Under the pieces are notes generated by a model that was not told the origin of the DNA, ran no database searches, and saw only the letters and a program-made list of their open reading frames with translations. A stretch of 64,000 nucleotides of DNA, taken from positions 1,472,001 through 1,536,000 of the forward strand of contig CAXXMV010000006.1 in assembly GCA_963662285.2 (NCBI GenBank), read 5' to 3'. A program made the position numbers and the translations under genes. Shown one piece after another: positions 42,761 through 57,342 of the stretch. Positions within the stretch are counted from its first letter, which is position 1. Each line of letters begins with the position of its first letter. This DNA is from a bacterium (GTDB lineage: Bacteria > Hinthialibacterota > Hinthialibacteria > Hinthialibacterales > Hinthialibacteraceae).

Positions 42761-44020
42761 ATGAACAGCAAACAACGGGTTTTAGCAGCCATAAATCATC
42801 AACAACCGGATCGCATCCCCATAGATTTCGGCGGCAGTAATGTCTCCAGTATGCATGTAACCTGCGTTGCTGCGTTGCGCGATTACTATGGTCTGGAGAA
42901 GAGACCTGTAAAAGTTCACGAACCTCATCAGATACTGGGTTGGATTGATGAAGACCTCAAACAGGCCATAGGCATTGATGTTGACAGTCCATTCCCCGCA
43001 GCCACCGGATTCGGCTTCCCCAACGAAAATTGGAAAGAATGGGAAATTCCAACCACTGGATTGACTGTGCTGGTTCCTGAGAAATTCAATACTGTACCAG
43101 AAGATAACGGGGATATTCTTTTGTATCCCCAAGGCGACCAATCGGCGCCGCCCAGCGGCAGGATGCCCAGAGGCGGCTATTACTTCGACGCAATTCTAAG
43201 GCAGCAGCCCATAGATGAAGATAAACTTGATCCAGAAGACAACCTTGAGGAATACAGCGTCGTTTCGGATAGTGAAATAGAAGAATACGCCCAAACCATT
43301 CGTAATACTGCAACCTATGGACGCGCTGTAGTAGGTAAAGTTAACTGTACATCTTTTGGAGATATTGCCCGCGTTCCCGGCATCCAGTTGAAACATCCCA
43401 AAGGCATTCGCGATATAACTGAATGGTACATGTCCATAGCCACCCGGCCTGACTACATACATGCCGTCTTCGCTAAACAGTGTGAATACGCATTAGTCAA
43501 TCTTCAGAAACTCAAAGACGCCTGCGGCGACCTGATTGACGTGCTATATATCTGCGGAACCGATTTCGGAACGCAGGATTCCACCTTCTGCTCGGTCAAC
43601 ACCTACAACGATCTCTTTAAACCTTATTACAAAACAGTCAACGACTGGATTCACCAGAATACCAATTGGAAAACCTTTAAGCATTCATGCGGAGCGGTGG
43701 AACGCTTTATCGATCCCTTCGTTGATTCAGGATTCGACATCCTCAATCCAGTGCAATGTTCAGCCAAAGGTATGGCGCCCGGTCATCTCAAAGACGCCTA
43801 TGGCGACCGCATGGTCTTCTGGGGCGGGGGAGTGGATACCCAGAAAACTCTGCCTTTCGGAACTCCGCAAGAGGTTCGCCAGGAGGTATTGCAGCGCTGC
43901 GAAATTTTCTCCAACAACGGTGGATTCGTCTTTAATGCAGTTCATAATGTACAAGCCAACACCCCGGTAGAAAACATAGTAGCCATGATTGACGCAGTCA
44001 AAGAATTTAACGGAGAGTGA
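42761..44020 (+). CDS. Uroporphyrinogen-decarboxylase-fold (MtaA/CmuA-like) protein
   Basis: MNSKQRV..AI.H..PDRIP.D, DFGTQ, HSCG, LNPVQ, FWGGGVDTQ, GGFVF..VHN.Q...P.EN. Start set at the ATG at 42761. Confidence 0.85.
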   Translation: MNSKQRVLAAINHQQPDRIPIDFGGSNVSSMHVTCVAALRDYYGLEKRPVKVHEPHQILGWIDEDLKQAIGIDVDSPFPAATGFGFPNENWKEWEIPTTGLTVLVPEKFNTVPEDNGDILLYPQGDQSAPPSGRMPRGGYYFDAILRQQPIDEDKLDPEDNLEEYSVVSDSEIEEYAQTIRNTATYGRAVVGKVNCTSFGDIARVPGIQLKHPKGIRDITEWYMSIATRPDYIHAVFAKQCEYALVNLQKLKDACGDLIDVLYICGTDFGTQDSTFCSVNTYNDLFKPYYKTVNDWIHQNTNWKTFKHSCGAVERFIDPFVDSGFDILNPVQCSAKGMAPGHLKDAYGDRMVFWGGGVDTQKTLPFGTPQEVRQEVLQRCEIFSNNGGFVFNAVHNVQANTPVENIVAMIDAVKEFNGE

Positions 44021-44027
44021 AATTACC

Positions 44028-45641
44028 ATGTACAACATCATTAAACAAAGTTTGTATGTAAGTCTTTTTCTCTGCTCACTGCTAACATTATCAATGCAGG
44101 TTGTTTTAGCTGAAGACAGCGGAGTCTTCTCGGTTAAACAATACAATGCCGTCGGCGACGGTCAAACGCTTGACACCAAAGCCATCCAGTCAGCCATTGA
44201 CGCCGCCTCGGCTGCCGGAGGAGGGACGGTCGATTTCCCTGCGGGAACCTACCTGTCAGGTACGCTTATCCTCAAAAGCAATATTACCCTGAATTTACAG
44301 CCTGGCGCAGTATTATTGGGCAGCCGTAAAGTTGAAGATTATCCACATACTATTCCCTCTATCAGGTCGTATACCGACAACTACGTCAAGCAAAGTTTGA
44401 TCTATGCCGAAAACCTCCACAACATCGCCATCACCGGCAGCGGAACCATCAATGGACAGGGCGACGCCTTTAAATGGAAAAAATATGAAAACCGCCCTTA
44501 TATAATCCGCATGATCTCTTGCGAGAAGGTCTTGATAGACGGAATCACGCTCATCAAATCACCCATGTGGATGCAGCATTATCTGGCCTGCGAAGACCTA
44601 ACAGTTCGCAATGTCCATGTCTTCAACCATGGCAATTATAACAATGACGGTATTGATCTGGATAGTTGCCGCAACGTCCGTCTTTCCGGTTGTTCTTTCG
44701 ATTCCGATGATGACGCTCTCTGTCTCAAAAGCACTACCGACAAACCATGCGAAAGCATAACCATTACCAATTGCGTACTCAGCAGTCATTGCAACGCCTT
44801 CAAAATGGGAACCGAATCAAACGGCGGTTTCAAAGATATCACCTTCTCCAACAGCACAATCCACTCTCCCCGGCTTAGCCAGGTCGAATATGGCAAACAG
44901 CGCGGTCTGGCGGGCATCGCATTAGAGATCGTTGATGGCGGAACTATGGATCAAATCGCCATATCCAACATCGTTTTAAGGGGAGTCTCCGTACCTCTCT
45001 TCCTGCGCTTGGGCGACCGCGCCCGGCCATTCATCAAAGATGCGCCCAAGCCGAAAGTAGGCCAATTCAAAAATGTAAGCATCAGTAATATAGTCGCTAC
45101 TGGCGTCTCCAAAATCGGCTGCTCCATCACCGGACAACCAGAGAAATTCTTAGAAAACGTCTCCTTGCAGGATATCCATATCGAATACGAAGGCGGCGGG
45201 ACAGAGGAAGACGCCATGCGGGAAGTAGAACACAAACCGACGTCGTATCCCGAATCAACCATGTTCGGCGTCCTTCCATCCTACGGCTTCTATTGCCGCT
45301 ATGTAAATGGATTAAACCTGCGCAACATCAACTTACGCTGGAAAGATAAAGACCTACGCTCCGCCATGATATGTCAAAAAGTGAATGATCTAACCATTGA
45401 CGGTTTCTATAGTAAAGCAACTCCTGATGGAAATTCTTCAATTATTTTGGATGATGTATCTGGAGCATTACTCAGAGGATGTCAGACCAAAGAGGCTATA
45501 AATGTTTTCTTGCAATTAGAGAATGAGACCAAGGATATTAGTTTGCTTTCCTCGGATCTAAGAAAAGCTGAAAATGCTGTTAAGTTTATGAATCAGGAAA
45601 TAAGAAAAACCTTTTTCCAAACCGCCAATCTCGGCGTATAA
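44028..45641 (+). CDS. GH28-family (polygalacturonase-like) glycoside hydrolase, secreted
   Basis: AVGDG..LDT.AIQ.AID, NNDGID, DDALCLKS, KMGTESNGGF. Start set at the ATG at 44028. Confidence 0.88.
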   Translation: MYNIIKQSLYVSLFLCSLLTLSMQVVLAEDSGVFSVKQYNAVGDGQTLDTKAIQSAIDAASAAGGGTVDFPAGTYLSGTLILKSNITLNLQPGAVLLGSRKVEDYPHTIPSIRSYTDNYVKQSLIYAENLHNIAITGSGTINGQGDAFKWKKYENRPYIIRMISCEKVLIDGITLIKSPMWMQHYLACEDLTVRNVHVFNHGNYNNDGIDLDSCRNVRLSGCSFDSDDDALCLKSTTDKPCESITITNCVLSSHCNAFKMGTESNGGFKDITFSNSTIHSPRLSQVEYGKQRGLAGIALEIVDGGTMDQIAISNIVLRGVSVPLFLRLGDRARPFIKDAPKPKVGQFKNVSISNIVATGVSKIGCSITGQPEKFLENVSLQDIHIEYEGGGTEEDAMREVEHKPTSYPESTMFGVLPSYGFYCRYVNGLNLRNINLRWKDKDLRSAMICQKVNDLTIDGFYSKATPDGNSSIILDDVSGALLRGCQTKEAINVFLQLENETKDISLLSSDLRKAENAVKFMNQEIRKTFFQTANLGV

Positions 45642-45667
45642 TAAACAGAACAGCAAGTGGAATCCAT

Positions 45668-45693
45668 GTAGGGTGCGCCTCTCGTGGGCGCCC
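45668..45693 (+). repeat. GTAG-REP-like hairpin
   Basis: GTAGGGTGCGCCTCTCGTGGGCGCCC shares the CTCGTGG core with the 3018-3212 units. Confidence 0.6.
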
Positions 45694-45734
45694 TGTTTGA
45701 AGCAATCACCTATGATTCCAAAGGATAAAAATTC

Positions 45735-46001
45735 ATGATCAATTCCATAGAAAAGCAATTACAGCAAATCCCGAATGTAGGCCTTGCAATATCCAGCAAA
45801 ATGATGCGTCTGGGAATCAAATCCATCGATCAGTTAGCTGATAGTGATGCGGAAAAGTTATATGACCGCCTCTGTGATATGGACGGCGTACAGCATGATG
45901 TCTGCCTGTTGGATGTCTTCGTATCCGCCGTCGAATTCGCAAAAACCGGGACAAATGAACCCTGGTGGGAATATAGCCGCAAACGCAAGCAAGAAGCATG
46001 A
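45735..46001 (+). CDS. Helix-hairpin-helix protein (Cdd1/mitomycin-resistance-like)
   Basis: LQQIPNVG, LGI, LYDRLC...G..HD.C.LDVF..AV.FA, PWW.YS..RK. Confidence 0.8.
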   Translation: MINSIEKQLQQIPNVGLAISSKMMRLGIKSIDQLADSDAEKLYDRLCDMDGVQHDVCLLDVFVSAVEFAKTGTNEPWWEYSRKRKQEA

Positions 46002-46321
46002 ATACCAAAAACCCTGAATATTGCTTGTAGGGCTTTCCCCCTCAAACAAAACAGGCATCGCCTGATAGTAGGCGCCAGCCATCATAATATAATAAATATC
46101 AAGGATTAAAAAAATCCCTGGAAGTTGGAAGCCCCTTTTATTATTTATTTCTAGAAATCCTCTAAGAATCTCTTAGGGGATTTTTTGGAATTATGCCCTA
46201 TCATTTCTCCCTAATATTCATAATTATCATTGTTTTACATATATTTTGCCTATGATTTATCATACAATAGAATCATATACACGTATGCATCACATAAGTC
46301 TAGAATAATCTGGAGGTTGTT

Positions 46322-47680
46322 ATGTTAAATAAGAGTATGATCCGCTGTTTATTTACTATATGGTTTGCGACTCTCGCCCTATTCGTTTCAGCGGCGGATT
46401 TCGAAGCTGGCGTCGCCAAGGCGTGCATTACCCCTTCTTATGATATATGGATGTCGGGTTACGCCTCACGTGACAAGCCGTCGCAAGGCAAACTACACGA
46501 CCTCAATGCTAAAGCCCTGACTCTTAAAGACAAAGATGGCAATTGCGCGGTGCTTTTGACCGCTGATCTGATAGGCGTATCGGCTGATCTGAGCGACCGG
46601 GTGGCTCAGCGCGTCAAAAAACTTACCGGAATAGAACGTGAGGCTATCATGGTAAGCGCCAGCCATACTCATAGCGGCCCGGTGTTGCGCAATAATCTGG
46701 AAACCATGTACGATCTTCCACCGGAAGAATGGGATAAAATAACTCGATATACTAAAGAATTAGAAGACAACATGGTAAAGGTGATCTGCCAATCGGTTGA
46801 AAATCTACAACCGGCCTCACTATATCGTGGAAATGGCGAGGCGCATTTCGCCGTCAATCGGCGCGAATATACCCTTGACGGAGTTAAGATTGGAGTGAAT
46901 CCCATAGGACCTTTGGATAATGACGTCCCGGTTATGAAAGTCGTCGATCAATCCGGTTCGATAATGGCCATAGTTTTCGGCTACGCTTGCCATAATACTA
47001 CTCTCAGCATCTTCAAACTAAGCGGCGATTACGCTGGTTTCGCTCAATACGAAATTGAAAAGAATCACCCCGAAGCCATCGCCATGTTCTTTATCGGCTG
47101 CGGCGCTGATGCTAATCCCAATCCCCGCAGAGAATTGGAACACGCCCGGAATTATGGCAAACAATTGAGCGACTCAGTAGACCGGGTGCTCAATGGCTTC
47201 ATGCGAGAAATCAAAGGATCAATTAAGACCTCATTCACCACCGTACCTCTTCCCCTGACTCCCGCGCCAACCCGCGCCCAACTTGAAGAACAGGCCAAAG
47301 ATGAATACATATATATCGTCCGCCGCGCCAAGAGTCTCTTAAAACAACTTGATAAAGACGGCTCTCTTCCAGAAACCTATCCTTATTCATTGCAACTGTG
47401 GAGCATTGGAAATGATTTCCGCTGGTTAGCCATGGCGGGCGAGGTCGTGGTCGATTATTCCTTACTCTTCAAGCACCTATACGGCAAAGATGATATCTGG
47501 GTGACGGGTTACGCCAATGACGTCTTCGCTTACATCCCATCATTACGGGTATTGCGAGAAGGCGGTTATGAAGCAAACGAATCCATGATCTATTACGGCC
47601 TACATGGTCCCTGGAAGCCTGAAATTGAAAAGATTATTGTAGATACAGTAGCCCAACTGGCTGATGAGATTGATTCCTAA
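46322..47680 (+). CDS. Neutral/alkaline ceramidase N-terminal domain protein, secreted
   Basis: MSGYASR, SASHTHSGP, VNRR, YACH.T, GCGAD.NP, GYANDV..YIP. Confidence 0.85.
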   Translation: MLNKSMIRCLFTIWFATLALFVSAADFEAGVAKACITPSYDIWMSGYASRDKPSQGKLHDLNAKALTLKDKDGNCAVLLTADLIGVSADLSDRVAQRVKKLTGIEREAIMVSASHTHSGPVLRNNLETMYDLPPEEWDKITRYTKELEDNMVKVICQSVENLQPASLYRGNGEAHFAVNRREYTLDGVKIGVNPIGPLDNDVPVMKVVDQSGSIMAIVFGYACHNTTLSIFKLSGDYAGFAQYEIEKNHPEAIAMFFIGCGADANPNPRRELEHARNYGKQLSDSVDRVLNGFMREIKGSIKTSFTTVPLPLTPAPTRAQLEEQAKDEYIYIVRRAKSLLKQLDKDGSLPETYPYSLQLWSIGNDFRWLAMAGEVVVDYSLLFKHLYGKDDIWVTGYANDVFAYIPSLRVLREGGYEANESMIYYGLHGPWKPEIEKIIVDTVAQLADEIDS

Positions 47681-47696
47681 CGCTATCAGCGTAACA

Positions 47697-47747
47697 GGGT
47701 GCCAAGGGCAGTGTTTTTTCTGCCCTTGATAACCACCCAAGATTAAA
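47697..47747 (+). repeat. GGGTG-CAAGGG REP-like hairpin
   Basis: GGGTGCCAAGGGCAG..CTGCCCTTGA with tail AACCACCCAAGATTAAA, as at 40633. Confidence 0.75.
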
Positions 47748-47771
47748 GATACAACCTATGGAGTAAAACCA

Positions 47772-49106
47772 ATGCTAACATCAAACCGAAACACTTACCT
47801 AATCGCCTTCTGCATCCTATTCGCAGCAAGTTCATTCGGATCAGATGAAACTCAGGATTTCTCTCCCCAACCGGACGAGCAGCAATTATCAATATCTATG
47901 CATTCCAAGATGGAAGAACTTCCTCTGATACGAGTCGGTCAATCTGATTCTGATCTAATTGGTAATGATAACCGCGTACTCCAGGCCGCAGTGGATTACA
48001 TAGCCAACCTGGGCGGCGGCGTGGTCGAGATTGGCGCCGGAACCTACACCATGCGCGATTCACTGCATCTTCGCGCTAATGTAACCGTCCGCGGCGTTGC
48101 GGATAAAACCATCCTGAAAAAATCGGATTGCGTATCATCTCTGCTGGCCATTGACGGCGACTTCGGCGAAGAGCAGATCACCCTGAAGAATCCAGATGGA
48201 TTCAAGGTCGGCGACGGCGTTGCAGTGTGGGATGACCAAGCCGGTGGTTTTCATACGGTCGTAGCCCGCATTACCGGACGCCGGGGCAATACTTTTTCGA
48301 TCAGCAAACCCCTGGGTTCTGATTATATGATTAATAATAAGGCTCATGCTGATACGGTCTTTCCAGTTGTCAGCGGTTATCATTTAGGAGGCGTACGCAT
48401 TGAAAATCTCGTCATCGATGGCAACCGGGATAGTAACGTCCACCTGAACGGCTGCCGTGGAGCGGGCATCTTTCTCTATCGCGGATTCGGAACCGTGATC
48501 AAGGATTGCATCGTGCGAAATTACAACGGCGATGGCATCAGTTTCCAGCAATCCAACGACGTAACCGTTATCAATTGCATCTGCGAAAACAACGCAATGC
48601 TGGGATTGCATCCCGGCAGCGGCTCGCAGCGTCCGCAGGTCAAGAATTGCATCGCCCGTAAAAATGGAACCGACGGCCTCTTCTTATGCTGGCGCGTGCG
48701 GCATGGATTATTTGAAAACAACATCATGGAGCAAAACGGGAGATTCGGCATCTCCATCGGACATAAAGACAGCGATAACCTGATCCAAAATAACCGCGTA
48801 GTTTCTAACCAAAACGATGGAATATTCTTCCGCAATGAAACAATCGGCATGGCGGGGCATCGCAACAAACTAAAGAACAACATCATCGAAAACAACGGCG
48901 CCGAAGGGAACGGCGCGGGCATAAGAATCCGCGGAGAAACCAACGGAACCGTAATAATGAACAACATAATCCGGGATACCCGCCCAGCTGATCAACAAAC
49001 CCAAACAGTAGGAATCCGAATAGAAGAAAAAGCCGGAACCGTTATTATCGAGAATAATAAGAACCAATCTCAACAGAAGATTGTTGATTTGCGTGAGGAG
49101 AAGTAA
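47772..49106 (+). CDS. Right-handed parallel beta-helix protein, secreted
   Basis: LQAAVD, GGVV.I.AGTY, repeated N...GI/NN.I..N coils. Confidence 0.85.
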   Translation: MLTSNRNTYLIAFCILFAASSFGSDETQDFSPQPDEQQLSISMHSKMEELPLIRVGQSDSDLIGNDNRVLQAAVDYIANLGGGVVEIGAGTYTMRDSLHLRANVTVRGVADKTILKKSDCVSSLLAIDGDFGEEQITLKNPDGFKVGDGVAVWDDQAGGFHTVVARITGRRGNTFSISKPLGSDYMINNKAHADTVFPVVSGYHLGGVRIENLVIDGNRDSNVHLNGCRGAGIFLYRGFGTVIKDCIVRNYNGDGISFQQSNDVTVINCICENNAMLGLHPGSGSQRPQVKNCIARKNGTDGLFLCWRVRHGLFENNIMEQNGRFGISIGHKDSDNLIQNNRVVSNQNDGIFFRNETIGMAGHRNKLKNNIIENNGAEGNGAGIRIRGETNGTVIMNNIIRDTRPADQQTQTVGIRIEEKAGTVIIENNKNQSQQKIVDLREEK

Positions 49107-49152
49107 CCTGAAAATGGATGAAACACACTTCCGCTTTGTCTCAACTAATTGG

Positions 49153-49226
49153 CTATCCTGGATGATTTCCAGCGAGGTAGATGTACTGTAATTGGATATT
49201 GCTGTTCCCAAGGAGGATAACAACGT
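49153..49226 (+). pseudogene. Putative decayed C-terminus of a type I R-M specificity subunit (hsdS relic)
   Basis: Frame reads L-S-W-M-I-S-S-E-V-D-V-L-*-L-D-I-A-V-P-K-E, versus the HsdS-type tail LPRLISGEVDVSELDI as I recall it. Most differences are single-base changes (TCC/CCC, TGG/CGG, ATG/CTG, AGC/GGC, TAA/GAA). Confidence 0.55.
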
Positions 49227-51485
49227 ATGTCTGAAACTGTATTTACAAAAGTCGATTATGATCTGGGCTCATTGATTAAGTATATCGGATTAGGAGAAAT
49301 TGGTCTTCCAGATATTCAGCGGCCTTTTGTCTGGAAGAATGCCAAAGTTCGCGATCTGTTCGATTCCATGTATAAAGGTTACCCAGTGGGTTATCTGCTG
49401 TTTTGGCAAAATGGGCAGGCCGATGCTTCCCGAACCATCGGAGTCGACAATAAACAGAAACCGCCCCGTTTGGTGATCGTAGATGGCCAGCAACGCCTGA
49501 CTTCTTTGTATGCCGTCGTCAAAAACATTGCCATTTTGCGGGATAACTTTGAAAGCGAACCTATCCAGATTGCCTTCAATCCACTGGAAGAAAATTTTGA
49601 AGTGGCCGACGCGGCCATTTGTAGAGACAAGTCATTTATCCCGGATATCTCTGTTTTGTGGAGTGCGGATGCAAAGATAACCCGGATTATTCGAGACTAC
49701 CTTGAGAATCTGCGGACGAGTCGTGAAATAAGTGAAGACGCAGAGTTGGAGATAGAAGACCGAATTCTAAAACTTCAGGGATTGCTGAGTTTCCCGTTTA
49801 CCGCTCTAGAACTGGCATCAGATATTGATGAAGAGGCAGTATCGGATGTGTTCGTACGAATCAACAGCAAAGGAACACCGCTAAATCAGGCCGATTTCAT
49901 TTTGACTCTAATGTCGGTATTTTGGGACGAAGGGCGCGCTGCCCTGGAGCGTTTCTGTCGCGAATCTCGTCAACCTGCGAAAGGCACAGCGTCCTCGTAT
50001 AACTATTTTATTAAACCGTCCCCCGATCAGTTGTTGCGAGTAGGTGTGAGCGTCGCATTCAAACGCGCCAGATTGAAATACGTGTACTCGATATTACGGG
50101 GCAAGGATCTTGAAACCGAACAATTCAGCCCCGAACTCAGGGAACAACAATTTGAACGTCTAAAGAATGCCCAAGAACGTGCGCTGAATCTCCAACACTG
50201 GCACGACTTCATGAATTGTATTCGTCAAGCCGGGTTTCGCAGTGAAAAAATGATCAGTTCACAGAACAATCTGATGTTTGCCTATTCACTCTATCTGATT
50301 GGTCGTACGGAATACAAGGTACCCGAGTTCAAACTTCGACGAGCGATCGCTCGCTGGTTCTTTATGTCGGCTGTCACAGGCCGCTTTACCGGCTCGCCGG
50401 AATCAGTCATGGAATCCGATCTCGCACGGTTCCGTGACGTAGATACCGACGAGGGATTCATGAAAATTCTCAACCAAATCTGCGACATCACACTCACCAA
50501 TGATTTCTGGGCAGTTTCTCTACCGAATGATCTTGCCACCTCATCATCCCGCAGCCCTTCACTGTTCGCCTATTATGCAGCGCTGGTAATGCTGGATGCG
50601 CGAGCGTTATTCTCCAAAATCAAGGTGGCCGATCTACTAGATCAGTCCATTCAGGCTAATCGTGCCGCCTCAGAACGACACCATCTGTTTCCTAAGAGTT
50701 ACCTTGGTAAACAGGGTATGAAAACTCCCCGTGATACAAATCAGATTGCTAATTTCGCGCTTGTAGAATGGGGCGACAATACGACTATTTCCGATCAGGC
50801 GCCTTTGGATTACGTGCCTGCAATGAAGGCGCGATTCAGTCAGGCAGAACTTGAGCAGATGTATCGATTTCATGCTTTACCGCCAAACTGGGAGCATCTG
50901 GATTACCGGAAATTTCTAGAGAAACGTCGCGAACTGATGGCGCAAGTGATCGCCGAGGGCTACGCGACCCTTCTGACCGTGGAAAACAAGAAAGATATAG
51001 CCGCAGCAGAGTTTGATCTGTCAAAGGTCATTTTGAACGGCGAATCCGAAGCAGTGGAGTTCAAGTCTACCTTACGCACTAACATGCACACAGGCGATAA
51101 AGACCCACGTATGGAATTGGCTGTGCTTAAGACTCTGGCTGGTTTTTTGAATACAAATGGCGGTATGTTAGTTATAGGTGTTTCGGATGATGGTAGCCCA
51201 GTTGGTATTCAGGCTGATGAATTTGAAAATGAAGACAAGATGAGTTTGCATCTTGTAAATATTGTCAAATCCCGTTTGGGAATACAAGCCATGATTTCTC
51301 TTCATATTAATTTTGACGATCGCAACAAATATCGTGTTATGGTAGTGAAATGCAATAAATCTCCTACGCCTGTTTTTGTTAAGGATGGCAACAATGAACG
51401 TTTTTATATTCGTACAGGGCCATCCACAACTGAGTTGAGTCCCAGCCAGACTCCTGAATATATCAAACAGAGGTTTATTGCATGA
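49227..51485 (+). CDS. GmrSD-like DUF262-HNH protein fused to a C-terminal Schlafen/AlbA_2 domain
   Basis: DUF262 motifs PDIQRPFVW, DGQQRLT, FVRIN. HNH-like ERHHLFPK..NQIANF..N. AlbA_2 GESEAVEFKS..AGFLNTNGG.LVIGV.DDG...GI..FYIRTGPST. AAGGAGG SD. Confidence 0.88.
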   Translation: MSETVFTKVDYDLGSLIKYIGLGEIGLPDIQRPFVWKNAKVRDLFDSMYKGYPVGYLLFWQNGQADASRTIGVDNKQKPPRLVIVDGQQRLTSLYAVVKNIAILRDNFESEPIQIAFNPLEENFEVADAAICRDKSFIPDISVLWSADAKITRIIRDYLENLRTSREISEDAELEIEDRILKLQGLLSFPFTALELASDIDEEAVSDVFVRINSKGTPLNQADFILTLMSVFWDEGRAALERFCRESRQPAKGTASSYNYFIKPSPDQLLRVGVSVAFKRARLKYVYSILRGKDLETEQFSPELREQQFERLKNAQERALNLQHWHDFMNCIRQAGFRSEKMISSQNNLMFAYSLYLIGRTEYKVPEFKLRRAIARWFFMSAVTGRFTGSPESVMESDLARFRDVDTDEGFMKILNQICDITLTNDFWAVSLPNDLATSSSRSPSLFAYYAALVMLDARALFSKIKVADLLDQSIQANRAASERHHLFPKSYLGKQGMKTPRDTNQIANFALVEWGDNTTISDQAPLDYVPAMKARFSQAELEQMYRFHALPPNWEHLDYRKFLEKRRELMAQVIAEGYATLLTVENKKDIAAAEFDLSKVILNGESEAVEFKSTLRTNMHTGDKDPRMELAVLKTLAGFLNTNGGMLVIGVSDDGSPVGIQADEFENEDKMSLHLVNIVKSRLGIQAMISLHINFDDRNKYRVMVVKCNKSPTPVFVKDGNNERFYIRTGPSTTELSPSQTPEYIKQRFIA

Positions 51486-51514
51486 CCCCACCCACTGGCT
51501 ATACTGAAGATGCT
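51482..51514 (+). pseudogene. Putative N-terminal relic of a type I restriction subunit (hsdR), cut by a REP-like element
   Basis: ATGA overlap with the upstream stop and an AGAGG SD. Reads MTPPTGYTEDA, resembling HsdR starts of the Y(S/T)ED.LVEQPA type as I recall them. A degenerate REP begins at the next codon. Confidence 0.5.
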
Positions 51515-51546
51515 GGGTACCATAGGCAAGACCCCAATGTGGTCTC
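51514..51546 (+). repeat. Degenerate GGGTG-family REP
   Basis: TGGGTACCATAGGCAAGACCCCAATGTGGTC matches the 39715 copy at 26 of 31 positions. Confidence 0.65.
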
Positions 51547-51600
51547 ACTTACTAACATGTAAGACTGTGTTTATGAGATATCCAAGAGGAGAGTTGTGAA

Positions 51601-51802
51601 ATGAATGCCATGCAAAAACAGACGCTGGGACATCTGAAATCAAAGTTATCCGAGTTTTATCAAGACCGTCTTGAAAGTCTTTATCTGTTTGGATCGCAAG
51701 CCAGGGAGACAGCTGAAGCTGAGTCGGATATTGATGTCATAGTTGTTTTGAAATGGCAGGATGATTGTAAGGTTTGAACGAATTGTTATTACAAAGGTTG
51801 CA
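51601..51802 (+). pseudogene. Minimal nucleotidyltransferase (MNT) fragment, frameshifted and truncated
   Basis: 58 codons to the TGA at 51775-51777 with LYLFGSQARETAEAESDIDVIVVL (GS..R.....SD.D). A shifted frame continues FERIVITKVAS into the REP at 51803. Not in the ORF track. Confidence 0.8.
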
Positions 51803-51852
51803 TCAAGGGCTGACCGCAATGCGGTCTTGCCCTTGCCACCCGTCACCCGTCA
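51803..51852 (-). repeat. Reverse GGGTG-family REP with a 7-bp CCCGTCA duplication
   Basis: Identical to 41715-41757, followed by a second CCCGTCA. Confidence 0.8.
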
Positions 51853-51897
51853 AAGCGCCAGCGTGTCCCAGCGATTGTGCATTAAATTTGTTCCTAA

Positions 51898-52122
51898 TTA
51901 TTTCAAGTAATCTAAGAATTCATCAACAGTAATCCCTGCTTGACGGATGATTGAACGCAAGGTTCCTTTATCTATTACGTTATGATCTGGAACAACAACG
52001 AGGGAATAAGGTTCATCTCTGCGCATAATAATATGGCTTCCATGCTGTCGTTTGATGTTAAAGCCCTTTTTTGCAAGCGCTTTAACACATTCACGGCCAG
52101 ATAATACGGGCAGTACGCTCAT
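51898..52122 (-). CDS. hicA: HicA-family toxin (mRNA interferase)
   Basis: SGRE.VKAL...GF...RQ.GSH..M, V.VPDH, GTLRSIIRQAG. Confidence 0.92.
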   Translation of the reverse strand: MSVLPVLSGRECVKALAKKGFNIKRQHGSHIIMRRDEPYSLVVVPDHNVIDKGTLRSIIRQAGITVDEFLDYLK

Positions 52123-52328
52123 ACGGCAACCAAAATTGCATTAAAGTGATCTTCCGGGATGGGACGGTTATCTTCTTCCAATACTGCGATGTAGCCCTGA
52201 ATGGCTTCTTTGATGTTATTGATTGCATCTTCCTTGGATTGCCCTTGGCTCACGCAACCCGGTAGGCTGGGACATTCCGCCACCCAAAAGCCATCTTCTC
52301 CAGGGTAAATTAGAACTTGTCTCATCAT
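52119..52328 (-). CDS. hicB: HicB-family antitoxin, short form without a DNA-binding domain
   Basis: EDG.WVAECPSLPGCVSQG.S.E.AI.NIKEAI..Y. ATGA overlap with hicA. Start at 52328 or 52325 after a GAGAGG SD. Confidence 0.9.
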   Translation of the reverse strand: MMRQVLIYPGEDGFWVAECPSLPGCVSQGQSKEDAINNIKEAIQGYIAVLEEDNRPIPEDHFNAILVAV

Positions 52329-52377
52329 CAACCTCTCTAGCATTTATTATTCTATTATAGTACAAAATAACGAAATC

Positions 52378-53811
52378 CTACGGAAATATCCCTTTATCCA
52401 CATAGAACTGGGCGATTTTCCGGATTGATTCAATGAATGCGGCGGTTCGTAGGTCTATGTTATCATTCACGCTTTTAAGCGTATCGCGGATGTGGTTGTA
52501 GGATGACATCATGGTCTCTTCGAGTCCCGCGTATACCAGGTCTTTTTCGCTGGCGCCGTAGCCCATTTGTTTGACATGTTCGGGAGTTATTTTCTCGCCG
52601 AACAAATCTTGCAGCGTACTTAATATGCTGCTGTGAAAGTTATCATCAAAGCGTTTGGTCATACGCCCGAAGCGGACGTGGGATAAATTCTTGACCCACT
52701 CAAAATAGGATACGGTCACCCCCCCGGCGTTTAGGTAAATGTCGGGGATTATCATGACTCCTTTATTATGCAGGTATTCATTGGCGTAGGCGGAGATCGG
52801 GCCGTTGGCTGCTTCTGCTATTATTTTGGCTTTGATCCGCTCAGCATTATCTATGGTAATCTGATTTTCCATCGCAGCTGGAATAAGGATATCGCATTCC
52901 ATTTCCAGGCCAATGCTTCTATCAGGAAGATTTTCGGCGTCGGGGAAATCGAGAATTGATTCTGTCGCTTTACGGTGTTCGATCACCTTTTCAATGTCTA
53001 ATCCATTGGGATTATAGATGGCGCCTTCATATTCACTTATGCAAATAATTTTGGCGCCAGCCTCATGAAAGAAATGCGTCGCGTGATAACCCACATTGCC
53101 CACTCCCTGGATGATAACCGTCTTGCCTTCTATGCCTGTAGCAAGACCCAGTTTATCCATGTCATCCTGGAAACTACATGCATGGCGCGTGCCATAAAAG
53201 ACGCCTAATCCGGTCGCTTCAGCGCGGCCATCTACTCCCCCCAAACTGACGGGTTTCCCTGTGACGCAGCCGATGGCGTCCAACTCATGCACCGCGAGAG
53301 TAGTATAGGTATCGACGATCCAGGCCATCTCTTGCGGACCGGTTCCGAAATCGGGCGCCGGGACGTCTGAACTGGGACCGATGAAATTCTTTCTATACAA
53401 CTCGAAGGTATACCGGCGGGTTATGCGTTCCAATTCGGATTCAGAATACATATGTTTGGATATTTTGACGCAGCCCTTGGCGCCTCCAAAAGGGACGTCA
53501 ACCACGGCGCATTTATAACTCATCAGCGCGGCCAGCGCGGTAACTTCATCTTCATTGACGTTAGCGGCGAAGCGGATGCCGCCTTTAGTCGGTAATATAT
53601 GATGACTATGCTCCGCCCGCCAGGCATGGATAACCTCTATGGTTCCATTATCGCGTTCAAGTGGAAAGGTTATGTGATAAACGTTACTACAACTCTTAAC
53701 CTGTTCTAAAAGCCCTGGCTCAAAATTGGTGTAACGGGCGGCTTTATCGAAATTCCAGTTGACCTGCTCGAAAAATTTCAGTTCACCTGACATAGTCACA
53801 TCCTTATACAT
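52378..53811 (-). CDS. gdhA: Glutamate dehydrogenase
   Basis: PTKGGIRF, KCAVVDVPFGGAKG, VPAPD, VTGKP..LGG..GR.EATG.G, QGVGNVG, NAGGVTVSYFEW.KN. Confidence 0.93.
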   Translation of the reverse strand: MYKDVTMSGELKFFEQVNWNFDKAARYTNFEPGLLEQVKSCSNVYHITFPLERDNGTIEVIHAWRAEHSHHILPTKGGIRFAANVNEDEVTALAALMSYKCAVVDVPFGGAKGCVKISKHMYSESELERITRRYTFELYRKNFIGPSSDVPAPDFGTGPQEMAWIVDTYTTLAVHELDAIGCVTGKPVSLGGVDGRAEATGLGVFYGTRHACSFQDDMDKLGLATGIEGKTVIIQGVGNVGYHATHFFHEAGAKIICISEYEGAIYNPNGLDIEKVIEHRKATESILDFPDAENLPDRSIGLEMECDILIPAAMENQITIDNAERIKAKIIAEAANGPISAYANEYLHNKGVMIIPDIYLNAGGVTVSYFEWVKNLSHVRFGRMTKRFDDNFHSSILSTLQDLFGEKITPEHVKQMGYGASEKDLVYAGLEETMMSSYNHIRDTLKSVNDNIDLRTAAFIESIRKIAQFYVDKGIFP

Positions 53812-53814
53812 TCA

Positions 53815-55593
53815 TTATTGTAATTCAATAATGCTCCATATACCCTGATTCGTCATGGATAAACTTATGACGTCGCCATCAGTTGTTATCTTCAAATTAC
53901 GGCTCTCACTATTGGGTGAATGAATCGTTGCCTTGCTTATAGTTCTCGCGCCGAAAATCTTCTTGGATATTTGTACTGTAGCAGATATCGGCGTTATCGA
54001 ATCATTATCAAAGTCATAATTTTGATTGAGAACATGACACACAATAGGCGCCTTGTCATCTTCAGTATTATATCGCAGGGAAACACGCAGATCATTTTCT
54101 GTTTTACAGCGGATATCTGTTTTCAAAGACTGGGGAAGCGAGTCGATATTCTTACACTCAATAACTTGCGCTTTTAACTTATTCAACCATTCGGCTTTGG
54201 CTAAAGTCATGGGATGTACCAAGATTGAATCAATTCCCGCCAGTTGCTTCATGTCCGGCTTGGTTGATGCATCAGCCATATAAACGATCCTATGTGGAAT
54301 GTTGGCATCGGTCATTTGTATGCATAATTTTTTAGTCGCGTTGAAATCATCGTTACTGCAAATAACGGCTGTCCTGGTCAGCGATTTATATCCATCAAAA
54401 AGCGCTTTGTTCTTCTGCACAAATTGGTATAGATCAGCAAAATCCTCTGGTTTTCCATTATACCAATGGGTTCCCAGTTCTTTGGTATAACACCATTGCC
54501 GGTGGGGAACCATAAAGACGCTGCCGAAAGCGTAGGTCTGGGCTATCCATGCCCTGACAAATCCCGGTTTATCATTGGCTTTGATCCAGGCCCAGTCCTG
54601 ACCCGATGCGGTAGCCGTCTGCCGGTCGCCCAAGGCTTCCACCATGCGGTAGACGAATACCGGTTGCGCATTGACTTTTTTACTCGCTGCATCCTGGGGA
54701 ATCTCGCCGCAGAAATAGTCAATAATAGGGGAGGGAATAACAGTTCGCGGCGACGAGGCGCTCGAATTGACGCTGCGCACCAGGGCTTTGCCGCGGATTT
54801 TCTCCGCATATTCATAGACCTCAGTGATGCGAATCTTCATCTGCTCATTTTGAAAATCCTGAAATTCTCCACGCAGTGGGATGGTATGCGCTTTATGCTT
54901 AAAGTCATCAGCCGAAAATCCTTTGCCTCTTAAGAATTTCCCATAATCAAAATCATCAATATTAGTGACGCCATAATCTTTAAGTTCTTCTTTGGACTTA
55001 TTCTGCTTGAGATATTCTCTGAAACCTTTCATGCAATGAACGCAAAAGCAACCTCCCATATAGGAACTGCAATTTGAAGAACCGCCGTAATCATCTATAT
55101 GCAAGCCATCTATTGGCGCCAGGCAGGCGCGTTTGGCTTGATCGAGAAAAAACTTTTGATATGAGGGATTATTCGAGCAAAACCAATAAGATGGATGGCC
55201 TTTGTGTTTATGATCCCACAACCAGGGAACGCATATTGCGTTGCCTTCCAGATCAAGGCTGATGGCTTCTTTGAAATTATCCGGCGCGAAATCGATATAC
55301 CCGCCAAAATCAACTAAAAAGTTAACGCTGCCGCAATACCTCATTCCCCGCTTATGAGCTTCAGCAACGCGTTTATTAAAACTCTCAACGCTCTTCTGAT
55401 CGCGCGAATTGCATAAGCCTCCCCAGCCAACCACCGTTCCCGAATAGTCGTCATACTGCTTAGGAGAACTGGCTGCATACATAAAAACAACATCGCTGGC
55501 ATGAATCGAAGGACGCTCTTCGGCATGCGCCAGGGTAAATCCCATTAGGCTGATGACGGATAAAACAAAGACGTGTTTTATAGAAGGTTTCAT
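53815..55593 (-). CDS. Secreted hypothetical protein, possible TIM-barrel glycoside hydrolase
   Basis: Signal peptide from MKPSIKH, IDGLHIDD, GGCFC.HC..GFREYL. Confidence 0.6.
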   Translation of the reverse strand: MKPSIKHVFVLSVISLMGFTLAHAEERPSIHASDVVFMYAASSPKQYDDYSGTVVGWGGLCNSRDQKSVESFNKRVAEAHKRGMRYCGSVNFLVDFGGYIDFAPDNFKEAISLDLEGNAICVPWLWDHKHKGHPSYWFCSNNPSYQKFFLDQAKRACLAPIDGLHIDDYGGSSNCSSYMGGCFCVHCMKGFREYLKQNKSKEELKDYGVTNIDDFDYGKFLRGKGFSADDFKHKAHTIPLRGEFQDFQNEQMKIRITEVYEYAEKIRGKALVRSVNSSASSPRTVIPSPIIDYFCGEIPQDAASKKVNAQPVFVYRMVEALGDRQTATASGQDWAWIKANDKPGFVRAWIAQTYAFGSVFMVPHRQWCYTKELGTHWYNGKPEDFADLYQFVQKNKALFDGYKSLTRTAVICSNDDFNATKKLCIQMTDANIPHRIVYMADASTKPDMKQLAGIDSILVHPMTLAKAEWLNKLKAQVIECKNIDSLPQSLKTDIRCKTENDLRVSLRYNTEDDKAPIVCHVLNQNYDFDNDSITPISATVQISKKIFGARTISKATIHSPNSESRNLKITTDGDVISLSMTNQGIWSIIELQ

Positions 55594-55712
55594 ATTATGC
55601 TTTCTCCCAATAGTAAAACTATCCAAAATATTTTAATCTATTAATATTACTGTTTCTTAGTTATACCATATTAGATGATTAAAATAAGATATCACTAGAG
55701 TGGAGCGCTCAA

Positions 55713-56486
55713 ATGAAAAAAATAATTCTATCAATATCTTTAATTCTATCTTGTGCTTTTCCTGGTTTCGCCAAATCCGTTTTGATCATTGCGGATGAAT
55801 GGCCGCAAATGGAAATCTTGGCGGAGTATCTCAAGACTGAGGGTAAATTCAAGGTTCAATCAGTCGAACAAACCGGGATACCCAAACGCATATCCTCAAA
55901 CAGGGCTGTTTTTATGTTCATTCATAAAGACCTTAATCAAGACGCCGCATTACAGATGATCGATTATGCAAAAAATGGAGGGAAATTAATTGTCATGCAC
56001 CACGGCATATCTTCCGCCAAGCGAAAGGTTCCTCAATGGTTCGATCTTCTAGGCGTCCATCTACCAACCAAAGAAGAAGAACCGGATAACTATTATACCT
56101 ATCAGCATGAGGTTGATTACCATATCGTAAATCTTCGTCCATCGCATTACATCACAACCAATAAAATCCTATGGCCGGATACTATAGAGTATCAATCATC
56201 CGATGCGCCTAGTCGTTATGCGCAAACGCCTGCCATGATCTTTGAAAATTCAGAAATATTCATGAATCATAATTTCAAAGATGGCCGTGAAAAAACCGTC
56301 CTGCTTGGCTTTCATCATAAGAATCCTAAAACGGGAAAAATAATTATGCAGGATCGAGGCGGTTGGTATAAGAAAGCTGGGAAGGGATGGGTATTCTATT
56401 TCCAACCAGGACACCTGACATCTGATTTTCAACAACCATATTGCCAGATGCTATTAAACTGCCTGAACTGGAAACCGGGGAAATAA
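55713..56486 (+). CDS. ThuA-like (class I glutamine-amidotransferase-like fold) secreted protein
   Basis: Signal peptide, GG.LIV.HH, GKG.VFYFQPGH. Confidence 0.75.
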   Translation: MKKIILSISLILSCAFPGFAKSVLIIADEWPQMEILAEYLKTEGKFKVQSVEQTGIPKRISSNRAVFMFIHKDLNQDAALQMIDYAKNGGKLIVMHHGISSAKRKVPQWFDLLGVHLPTKEEEPDNYYTYQHEVDYHIVNLRPSHYITTNKILWPDTIEYQSSDAPSRYAQTPAMIFENSEIFMNHNFKDGREKTVLLGFHHKNPKTGKIIMQDRGGWYKKAGKGWVFYFQPGHLTSDFQQPYCQMLLNCLNWKPGK

Positions 56487-56649
56487 TATGACGCAGAGAG
56501 AAATGACGCAAACTCATAATCCGCATAGTTTCATGAATCTATTAAGGTTGGTTGGTTTAACCCTTCTAACGGTTGCAGTATATGTCGCCCTCAAAATACA
56601 GGGCAAATTGAAAATGTAAATTCAGTCAATTAAAACAATCCACCAAAGC

Positions 56650-56678
56650 GTAGGATGGGTCGGCCTTATCGACCCATC
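56650..56678 (+). repeat. GTAG-REP-like hairpin
   Basis: GTAG GATGGGTCG-GCCTTAT-CGACCCATC. Confidence 0.7.
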
Positions 56679-56706
56679 AAAAATCCACCCCAACTAACAC
56701 TCCCCA

Positions 56707-57342
56707 CTACTCAGCCGCCTCAAAGTATACTATAGGAGTGTTAATTTCTTGAAAAACCAGACGGAAATCCTTGCCAAATGTTTCTAAAAATAAACTTTTT
56801 TTCCGGTCAACTGCATTTAATTCCTCAACGCATGGAAAATCTGAATCGGCTTTGAATGTATAAGCCCCATTGGCCTGGATGCATTCAATATCCCTGATGC
56901 GCGTCTCATGTCCCGTATCCAGCCCATCAGCAATCCGTAAAAAGGAAGCCAGTTTTCTCACTACCAACTGATCTTCAGGTGAAAGAAGAACAAACAGGGA
57001 ATGAGAATGCTTAGGTAAAGATCTACGATGGTATCTTACAATATTGGCGAGCATCCTTAATTCTCTATCATCAAAAGCAGGAAGATTGCTATTTAGAATA
57101 ATCCTCATCGAGTGTTTATGATGAGATTTTCTTGAAATACTCCACCCGATATCATGCAGAAAAGCGGCGCTTTCTAATAGGGTGCGTTCTTCAATTCCTA
57201 ATTCATGAAGTGATGTTAACTGATCAAAAAGGGCCATTGATAGTTTTGTTACATGAAGAGAATGCGAAACTTCATGACCAATAGACTCTAATAATTCTCT
57301 CGCTTGAATGGTTTTGGATTTTAATCCATCAAAGGACGGCAT
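56707..57342 (-). CDS. Stand-alone HD domain of the Ppx/GppA C-terminal type
   Basis: H..HV..L...LFD, AA.LHDIG..I....HHKHS..II, RYHR, LRIADGLD. Confidence 0.85.
   Translation of the reverse strand: MPSFDGLKSKTIQARELLESIGHEVSHSLHVTKLSMALFDQLTSLHELGIEERTLLESAAFLHDIGWSISRKSHHKHSMRIILNSNLPAFDDRELRMLANIVRYHRRSLPKHSHSLFVLLSPEDQLVVRKLASFLRIADGLDTGHETRIRDIECIQANGAYTFKADSDFPCVEELNAVDRKKSLFLETFGKDFRLVFQEINTPIVYFEAAE

Follow-up and report, generated by a model that had tools for sequence, protein, structure and literature searches.

The 64,000-nucleotide window analysed here (positions 1,472,001 to 1,536,000 of contig CAXXMV010000006.1, from a bacterium of the Hinthialibacteraceae) carries, at 49227..51485 on the forward strand, a gene encoding a protein of 752 amino acids (aa). 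We found that this gene is an intact, horizontally acquired member of the already published DUF262-Slfn class; its architecture is not new. Sequence and fold comparisons establish which domains it has, that these are collinear with solved enzymes, and that all three catalytic centres are under selection. The protein is probably a single-gene defence enzyme with two nucleases and two substrates, in which a BrxU-like core gated by nucleoside triphosphate (NTP) would cut foreign DNA, while a tethered Schlafen domain would cut transfer RNA (tRNA).

The DUF262-Slfn class joins type IV restriction of the BrxU/GmrSD kind with the Schlafen tRNases of human antiviral immunity, and the evidence published on it, as far as the main texts describe it, is a plating phenotype. 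Our analysis adds the spread of the class between phyla and the horizontal acquisition of this copy, an association with type I restriction-modification genes, a swappable Schlafen slot, and relatives that have lost the HNH site while keeping the Schlafen catalytic set. Clean and intact, and from a subfamily of unusual conservation and mobility, the 752-aa copy is a reasonable candidate for biochemistry and structure determination.

Domain architecture of the fusion protein

In the list of open reading frames (ORFs) of the window, the gene is a single uninterrupted frame with an ATG start, preceded by a Shine-Dalgarno sequence; the N-termini of homologues align with the 752-aa protein from residue 1, which supports this start. 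The first-pass annotation, made from the letters alone, had described one 752-aa frame with DUF262, HNH-like and Schlafen motifs, and the frame lies exactly at the coordinates it gave, with every motif that it quoted found in the translation. The features of the gene are as follows.

49210..49216, forward strand: Shine-Dalgarno sequence AAGGAGG, 10 nucleotides 5' of the ATG, read from the sequence
49227..51485, forward strand: whole gene, BrxU-type GmrSD core plus Schlafen/AlbA_2 domain (DUF262-Slfn class), by Pfam, PADLOC, AlphaFold and Foldseek
49293..49904, forward strand: DUF262/GmrSD_N NTPase domain, aa 23-226, by PF03235 and alignment with BrxU (7p9k)
49905..50636, forward strand: all-helical linker domain, aa ~227-470, by the helices of the model and by Foldseek alignment with the linker of BrxU, with which it is collinear
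50637..50981, forward strand: predicted DUF1524-like His-Me-finger (HNH) nuclease domain, aa ~471-585, by weak BrxU profile alignment and Foldseek
50985..51008, forward strand: flexible inter-domain linker, aa 587-594, the sole model segment with a predicted local distance difference test (pLDDT) score below 50
51042..51437, forward strand: Schlafen/AlbA_2 single-lobe nuclease domain, aa 606-737, by PF04326, profile match to SLFN14 and Foldseek

An AlphaFold2 model of the 752-aa protein, built with 150 diverse homologues, reached a mean pLDDT of 93.8 and a predicted template modelling score of 0.78. When this model was compared with the PDB by Foldseek, the top match was BrxU (E=1.9e-14), with 650 aligned columns that take in the whole BrxU chain, followed by SspE and DndI. 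The structure prediction that the first-pass annotation had proposed as a check thus gave a confident model, which matches BrxU in the core and SAMD9 and SLFN structures at the C-terminus. No NCBIfam family was matched by the 752-aa protein, and the helical linker (aa ~227-470) matched no Pfam family.

The N-terminal domain is a clear member of PF03235 (GmrSD_N; aa 23-226, E=3.9e-31, 109.1 bits, cut-off 33.2), and the core motifs QR (31-32), RDLFDS (42-47), DGQQR (86-90) and FVRIN (209-213) are present in the translation. The PADLOC search likewise agreed with the proposed GmrSD-like identity, since its best model was HEC-05 (BrxU-like; 124.6 bits, E=1.2e-36); HEC-05 is BrxU according to its authors, who chose a homologue 99.2% identical to BrxU. 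By single-sequence search, BrxU was the only solved relative (7p9k, aligned to aa 14-237, E=1.6e-9), and a profile of 33 family members lifted this match to E=2.4e-22. DGQQR and RDLFDS both align with their BrxU counterparts, the DGQQR motif of NTP hydrolysis and the RLFDS-type nucleotide-binding motif, as these motifs are defined in published work on BrxU and GmrSD.

The nuclease region contains the motifs ERHHLFP (483-489), NQIANF (505-510) and EWGDN (514-518). In the profile alignment, HHLFPK falls on BrxU residues 474-479 (D474-H475-IYPK), and N505, N509, E514 and N518 fall on the same-numbered residues of BrxU, all within one weak stretch of 7.6 bits. The mutagenesis targets of Picton et al. 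in BrxU comprised D474, H475, N485, N519, E528 and residues of DGQQR, and Payne et al. reported that D and H mutants of BrxU lost resistance. The three Pfam families named for checking gave a divided result: PF03235 and PF04326 both match, while PF07510 (DUF1524/GmrSD_C) gave no hit at E<=1. Among the 33 family members, matches to PF07510 were all below threshold (5 of 33, best E=0.027). For the HNH (DUF1524) segment of the first-pass annotation, the motif letters and the collinearity with BrxU therefore stand, and the Pfam match does not. Because PF07510 is unmatched, the HNH assignment rests on the fold and on the weak collinear profile alignment, and on this basis aa ~471-585 are predicted to be a DUF1524-like HNH DNA nuclease collinear with the DHIYP...N...N site of BrxU. 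Modelled in isolation (aa 440-600, 23 orthologues), the same region gave a poor model, with a pLDDT of 65.2.

At the C-terminus, aa 606-737 match PF04326 (SLFN_AlbA_2) with E=7.5e-20 and 72.1 bits (cut-off 25.3), and the match takes in profile positions 1-117 of 118. The first-pass annotation had named a C-terminus unlike AlbA_2 as grounds for giving up its reading; the C-terminus does match, and the reading is not refuted on this ground. The domain contains GESEAVEFK (605-613), with the spacing E606-x4-E611-x-K613, and GVSDDG (651-656). A Schlafen-type E-x4-E-x-K spacing had been proposed from the letters, and the alignment bears it out: the profile of the 33-member family matches SLFN14 at E=3.7e-9, placing E606, E611 and K613 on SLFN14 E206, E211 and K213, and D654-D655 on D248-D249. 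The strong part of the SLFN14 match spans SLFN14 residues 186-344, the C-lobe, which is where Perez Taboada et al. (10.1101/2025.07.24.666596) place the Ex4ExK active site of Schlafens. Foldseek matches of the C-terminal domain were DIP2311 (3lmm), the DNA-binding/tRNase domain of SAMD9 (7ksp, 9o0d), SLFN14, SLFN13, SLFN12, SLFN11 and SLFN5. The titles of PDB entries include catalytic-residue mutants of SLFN11 (E209A) and SLFN14 (E211A), which are equivalents of the Schlafen residues of the 752-aa protein. A homodimer prediction for two copies of the isolated Schlafen domain (aa 596-752) scored 0.00, below the mark, and was not used as evidence.

Among characterised systems, BrxU (Escherichia fergusonii pEFER; PDB 7p9k/7p9m; HEC-05) is the best PDB match by both sequence and fold, and it shares the DUF262 domain, DGQQR, an RLFDS-type motif (RDLFDS here), the helical linker and a DUF1524-type HNH domain with collinear H and N residues. 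It differs in being 587 aa long without a Schlafen domain and in its nuclease motif, DHIYP as against HHLFP, and the Foldseek identity is 16-17%. BrxU cleaves DNA with modified cytosines; its published biochemistry describes modification-dependent cleavage and an NTP-driven cycle from dimer to monomer. Like the DUF262-Slfn gene, it is described as often embedded in other defence operons. HEC-06, SspE and DndI have the same DUF262 plus DUF1524 organisation and a DGQQR motif, but they match far more weakly (PADLOC <=26 bits for HEC-06 and <=18.8 bits for SspE; Foldseek E 3e-5 to 2e-3). An identity as a phosphorothioate-sensing SspE/Dnd protein was considered and rejected, the best SspE model scoring 18.8 bits and no ssp or dnd genes being present within 44000-57000 of the window.

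The Schlafen part shares the AlbA_2 fold and the catalytic E-x4-E-x-K plus Asp with human SLFN11, SLFN13, SLFN14 and the tRNase domain of SAMD9. The Schlafens of eukaryotes have two AlbA_2-like lobes per chain and a helicase domain, whereas the 752-aa protein has one lobe. It is closer in layout to RorSlfn5 and Cash (CRISPR-associated Schlafen), which are described as bacterial single-lobe Schlafen nucleases joined to a sensor. The sensor differs in each case: an immunoglobulin-like domain that binds a phage tail chaperone in RorSlfn5, a Csx15 domain that binds cyclic tetra-adenylate (cA4) in Cash, and an NTPase-nuclease as the partner in the 752-aa protein.

Distribution, selection and modularity of the family

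The family is large. A word-indexed protein search returned at least 8,000 relatives, of which we describe the closest 119 beside the query; these are 729-778 aa long and 77-85% identical, and all have both Pfam domains. Those that have a name are called "hypothetical" or "DUF262 domain-containing protein", and their sources include Anaerolineae, Firmicutes, Desulfobacterales and Planctomycetes. An exhaustive search of 50%-identity representatives gave 13,487 relatives at E<=1e-3, of which 914 remained at E<=1e-30. At the level of loci, we used the best 80 (L001-L080) of 367 stretches that encode a relative among contigs from one genome per species. These 80 loci are 61-86% identical and come from many bacterial phyla (including Planctomycetota, Chloroflexota, Bacteroidota and Desulfobacterota) as well as from archaea (Methanotrichaceae, Methanocrinis, Methanohalophilus, Methanoculleus and Thermoplasmata). 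Such identity across domains of life is unusually high for a defence gene and implies recent and frequent transfer between phyla.

The genome to which the window belongs (7.29 Mb) has one copy of the fusion gene. A close copy is absent from all 40 relatives of this genome that were searched, 19 of which belong to the same family; the best they offer is 36-40% identity, in open frames of 565-666 aa without a Schlafen domain. Because 0 of 40 relatives have a close copy, yet copies 61-86% identical span bacterial and archaeal phyla, the gene was acquired horizontally. Phage records gave seven matches, none covering at least 80% of the protein, so these records hold no sign of sequenced phages carrying the fusion. 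Among plasmid records 206 match, and four cover at least 80% (at 23-26% identity); most are core-only proteins covering aa 1-583. In 5,426 complete E. coli genomes, the gene had no match by blastn in distant mode.

The catalytic residues are strongly conserved. In the alignment of 50%-identity representatives, the Schlafen residues are kept in nearly all rows (E606 in 38 of 40, E611 in 39, K613 in 39 and D654 in 37), as are those of DUF262 (D86 in 100 of 101 rows, Q88 in 98, Q89 in 99, R90 in 100) and those of the HNH region (H485 in 110 of 117, H486 in 107, N509 in 114, N518 in 106). In the representatives P0187, P0204, P0228 and P0242, W stands at otherwise invariant glycines (DWQQR for DGQQR; NWW/WWW for NGG), as would be expected if genes with TGA=Gly (putatively code 25, Gracilibacteria/Absconditabacteria) had been translated as TGA=Trp.

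Among the 80 loci, 72 have an ORF of at least 740 aa; of the eight shorter ones, three lie at contig ends, three are split into pieces (L004, L031, L065) and two are shortened. In the 72 full-length ORFs, DGQQR and the HH pair are intact without exception (three have P changed to S or A after HH), and the strict pattern E-x4-E-[FYL]-K is found in 71, the exception being L067 with D-x4-E-x-R. Since these motifs are kept in 71-72 of the 72 ORFs, all three catalytic centres are under purifying selection in the close subfamily.

In the wider family, the Schlafen domain comes and goes. Many relatives consist of the core (aa 1-583) by itself, about 580-600 aa, and 60 of the 83 core regions in our tree have the same core without a Schlafen domain. 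We tallied Pfam families over 50 representatives of at least 690 aa: GmrSD_N occurs in 48, SLFN_AlbA_2 in 24, RAMA in five, N-terminal Mrr_N in five, DUF4268 in three, and DUF4357, N-terminal MrcB_N, HEPN_Swt1 and HEPN_SAV2148 in one each. The C-terminal slot of the Schlafen domain is instead occupied by RAMA in P0145, P0163, P0182, P0183 and P0201, or by DUF4268 in P0127 and P0129; P0129 is labelled "SLFN" in the tree by alignment coverage, while Pfam assigns DUF4268. A maximum-likelihood tree of the 83 core regions requires 14 changes to explain where the Schlafen domain occurs, and well-supported branches by themselves force at least seven. Because of these swaps and the 7-14 changes on the tree, the Schlafen domain is one accessory among several that a BrxU-like core can exchange.

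The pattern of decay is informative. The catalytic HNH histidine is lost in four Schlafen-bearing representatives, P0156 (RHRLFS), P0161 (RHTLFPK), P0192 (KHNLKP) and P0230 (GYSLLFPK), the last of which also has GQ for QR and DGKNR for DGQQR; all four retain the canonical E-x4-E-F-K-S. P0133 is not HNH-degenerate, its HH pair being present and displaced by a 2-residue insertion. A degenerate Schlafen set was seen only in P0220 and P0268, both of which also lack the HNH pair, and in none of the HNH-intact rows. That the Schlafen catalytic residues outlast a decayed HNH site speaks for a domain that acts as an active effector, not as a passenger.

Type I restriction-modification genes accompany part of the family. 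We grouped the ORFs around the 80 genes by all-against-all BLASTP and assigned Pfam families to those clusters that recurred. Neighbours included HsdR at 18 of the 80 loci, HsdS at 15, HsdM at 13 and a YhcG/DUF1016 nuclease at five. Type I genes were present at 25 of the 80 loci and at 13 of the 30 that have 5 kb or more of sequence on each side, usually in the order HsdM-(YhcG)-HsdS-gene-HsdR on one strand. This agrees with previous reports of GmrSD-like genes embedded in type I restriction-modification systems. No integrase or transposase was found among the recurrent neighbour clusters. At eight of the 80 loci, a separate gene of about 470-560 aa encoding SLFN_AlbA_2 plus Fic-like_C lies beside the fusion, often within the type I operon (L007, L020, L023, L029, L030, L037 and others).

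Proposed mechanism and competing explanations

Perez Taboada et al. (Nat Microbiol 2026, PMC13056530; preprint 10.1101/2025.07.24.666596) name DUF262-Slfn as a class and put its share of 5,930 prokaryotic Schlafens at 1.8%. Its member EcoSlfn7, from E. coli UC4224, reduces the plating of many different phages, with the largest effect, 538.5-fold, on T7 (PMC13056530). By its stated architecture EcoSlfn7 resembles the gene studied here: a single gene with DUF262 and a Schlafen nuclease with Ex4(E/D)xK, active in phage defence (PMC13056530). The possible novelty of this exact fusion, raised in the first-pass annotation, does not hold, as the class was already named and EcoSlfn7 shown to be defensive. 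The main text of that paper contains none of the terms HNH, ParB and GmrSD, and the mechanism that it studies is that of RorSlfn5, a phage-activated tRNase of another class; its authors assign sensing to the fusion partners of prokaryotic Schlafens and the effector role to the Schlafen domain (PMC13056530). Cash is described as a tRNase activated by cA4 (PMC13462974), and Schlafen-Argonaute fusions have also been published. A survey of bacteriophage exclusion (BREX) systems lists GmrSD and Schlafen as separate auxiliary effectors and describes GmrSD as ParB plus HNH. The broader claim made from the letters, a GmrSD-like nuclease with a Schlafen/AlbA_2 domain in an anti-phage role, is backed by profile, fold and literature evidence.

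For the 752-aa protein itself, we infer the substrates, the coupling between the modules and the abortive outcome. Binding and hydrolysis of NTP at the DUF262 domain would gate a dimer-monomer cycle that engages foreign DNA, as in BrxU, and the HNH domain would cleave the DNA so engaged. The same sensing event may free or position the Schlafen domain on its eight-residue tether, whereupon it would cleave tRNA, as do RorSlfn5, Cash and human SLFN11. Translation would then stop, and infection could be halted even where the DNA survives. In many genomes the protein would serve as a complementary layer within a type I restriction-modification operon; here it would act alone, beside toxin-antitoxin genes.

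The phage range of EcoSlfn7 bears on what the core may recognise. T7 is not known to carry hypermodified bases, nor does it count among the classic substrates of type IV restriction. The T7 phenotype suggests that hypermodified DNA is not the only DNA on which the class acts. The sensing of modified phage DNA proposed in the first-pass annotation is carried over from BrxU and GmrSD, and its idea that the RNase backs up a failed DNA cleavage is a hypothesis. Since EcoSlfn7 is strongest on a phage not known to have such bases, the challenge with T-even phages carrying modified cytosine that had been proposed as a check is not an obvious discriminator.

Several points weigh against a two-nuclease enzyme. 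Its HNH half lacks a match to PF07510, and the alignment of that region to BrxU is weak by itself. When the AlbA_2 domain of SAMD9 was first crystallised, it was described as binding DNA (7ksp). In sister proteins, the C-terminal slot holds RAMA or DUF4268, and Mrr_N or MrcB_N is found at the N-terminus. RAMA, DUF4268, Mrr_N and MrcB_N are mostly DNA-reader modules; because such modules also occur in the C-terminal slot, this slot is not reserved for effectors. Within the window, no restriction-modification or other known defence system adjoins the fusion gene. The likeness to EcoSlfn7 is drawn from the published description of its architecture, and in the main texts searched we found no published mechanism for the DUF262-Slfn class, for which supplementary tables may hold more.

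Of the other explanations, the most probable keeps the Schlafen RNase as the sole, abortive, tRNA-directed effector, treats the GmrSD core as an NTP-gated DNA sensor and has the HNH site bind or nick DNA during sensing. This division of labour is in line with the sensor/effector view of Perez Taboada et al. and with the T7 preference of EcoSlfn7, and it would account for P0156, P0161, P0192 and P0230, which keep the Schlafen set without the HNH histidine (P0230 also without QR and DGQQR). However, the HH pair and DGQQR are intact in all 72 full-length close loci, so that the HNH site is under selection in the subfamily of this protein; the 60 core rows without a Schlafen domain keep the same core, and BrxU is reported to defend via its HNH site. 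We therefore regard a purely sensory core as unlikely here. A further reading, which we put forward as a tentative possibility, is that recognition of DNA is converted into destruction of RNA within one polypeptide: the core would sense foreign, not necessarily modified, DNA, and the dimer-monomer cycle would license tRNA cleavage by the Schlafen domain. The HNH site would be dispensable in some lineages, where the ancestral restriction enzyme would have been turned into a pure sensor for an abortive-infection RNase. If true, it would link type IV restriction mechanistically with Schlafen immunity.

The reader modules in sister proteins raise the opposite prospect, that the AlbA_2 domain cuts no RNA here and instead, by binding DNA or an RNA-DNA structure, targets or regulates the HNH DNase, which would make the protein an ordinary type IV restriction enzyme. 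RAMA (five representatives) and DUF4268 (two or three) in the C-terminal slot fit this, as do Mrr_N (five) and MrcB_N (one) at the N-terminus, the swapping of the Schlafen domain with at least seven and most parsimoniously 14 gains or losses on the core tree, and Foldseek matches to entries titled "hSAMD9_DBD with DNA" and, for SLFN5, "DNA/RNA binding protein". But pure binding would have no need of E606, E611, K613 and D654, which are kept in 37-39 of 40 rows, with the motif in 71 of the 72 close loci; the inactive mutants of SLFN11 (E209A) and SLFN14 (E211A) named in PDB titles are changed at the equivalent residues; the Schlafen set persists where the HNH site has decayed; and an RNase of the HEPN type is also an accessory in the GmrSD-core family. 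A purely binding role for this domain is thus improbable. Far less probable still is a role outside defence, as a housekeeping or plasmid/chromosome-maintenance protein of ParB-like ancestry with nuclease domains. The DUF262 fold lies within the ParB/Srx superfamily, GmrSD has a ParB part in the account of the BREX survey, and the neighbours in the window are metabolic; against this stand the patchy, transfer-shaped spread with no close copy in 40 relatives, the embedding in type I restriction-modification operons, the breakage of at least three of 80 copies (L004, L031, L065), and the experimental defence phenotype reported for the class member EcoSlfn7 (PMC13056530).

Surroundings of the gene in the window

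Upstream of the fusion gene in the window are URO-D-like, GH28, Cdd1, ceramidase-like and beta-helix genes. Downstream are a nucleotidyltransferase fragment, a HicA/HicB pair and then a glutamate dehydrogenase gene.

51601-51777, forward strand: fragment of a minimal nucleotidyltransferase, 58 aa, matching the first ~40 profile positions (PF01909, E=1.7e-8; Polbeta, E=7.1e-8)
51898-52343, reverse strand: HicA toxin (74 aa, PF07927, E=9.5e-20) and HicB-like antitoxin (74 aa, PF15919, E=1.5e-8), by Pfam

Judged by its sequence, the fragment looks like a truncated remnant of a minimal nucleotidyltransferase (an MNT-type antitoxin) without its HEPN partner. An imperfect 30-nucleotide inverted repeat, at 51515-51544 and 51812-51841 and 77% complementary, brackets it. 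The HicA and HicB-like ORFs are intact, overlap by four nucleotides and are convergent with the fusion gene; HicAB is not among the recurrent neighbour clusters of the 80 loci. Together, the fusion gene, HicAB and the nucleotidyltransferase remnant form a small defence/toxin-antitoxin islet among metabolic genes.

No convincing att-like direct repeats flank the fusion gene, and its composition is unremarkable (guanine plus cytosine 45.9%, against 43.7% for the window). Among the sequencing runs listed as containing this stretch, two are DNA runs from one study and none is an RNA run. The glutamate dehydrogenase gene was found in seven of the 19 relatives from the same family, and an empty site was not identifiable, as in five regions around the glutamate dehydrogenase gene of relatives none of the other 11 window genes was nearby. 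Between the glutamate dehydrogenase gene and a ThuA-like gene, a 603-aa ORF (53815-55626, reverse strand) has a predicted N-terminal hydrophobic stretch and matches no Pfam family at E<=0.001.

Elsewhere in the same genome (G000), six further SLFN_AlbA_2 domains lie above the Pfam cut-off, in open frames of 320-553 aa (contig and positions).

C2:296935-297300, SLFN_AlbA_2 domain
C6:931516-931908, SLFN_AlbA_2 domain
C8:272648-273031, SLFN_AlbA_2 domain
C2:323017-323355, SLFN_AlbA_2 domain
C1:1109584-1109937, SLFN_AlbA_2 domain
C1:660275-660592, SLFN_AlbA_2 domain

With these six domains and the fusion, the organism carries seven Schlafen-type proteins of several architectures.

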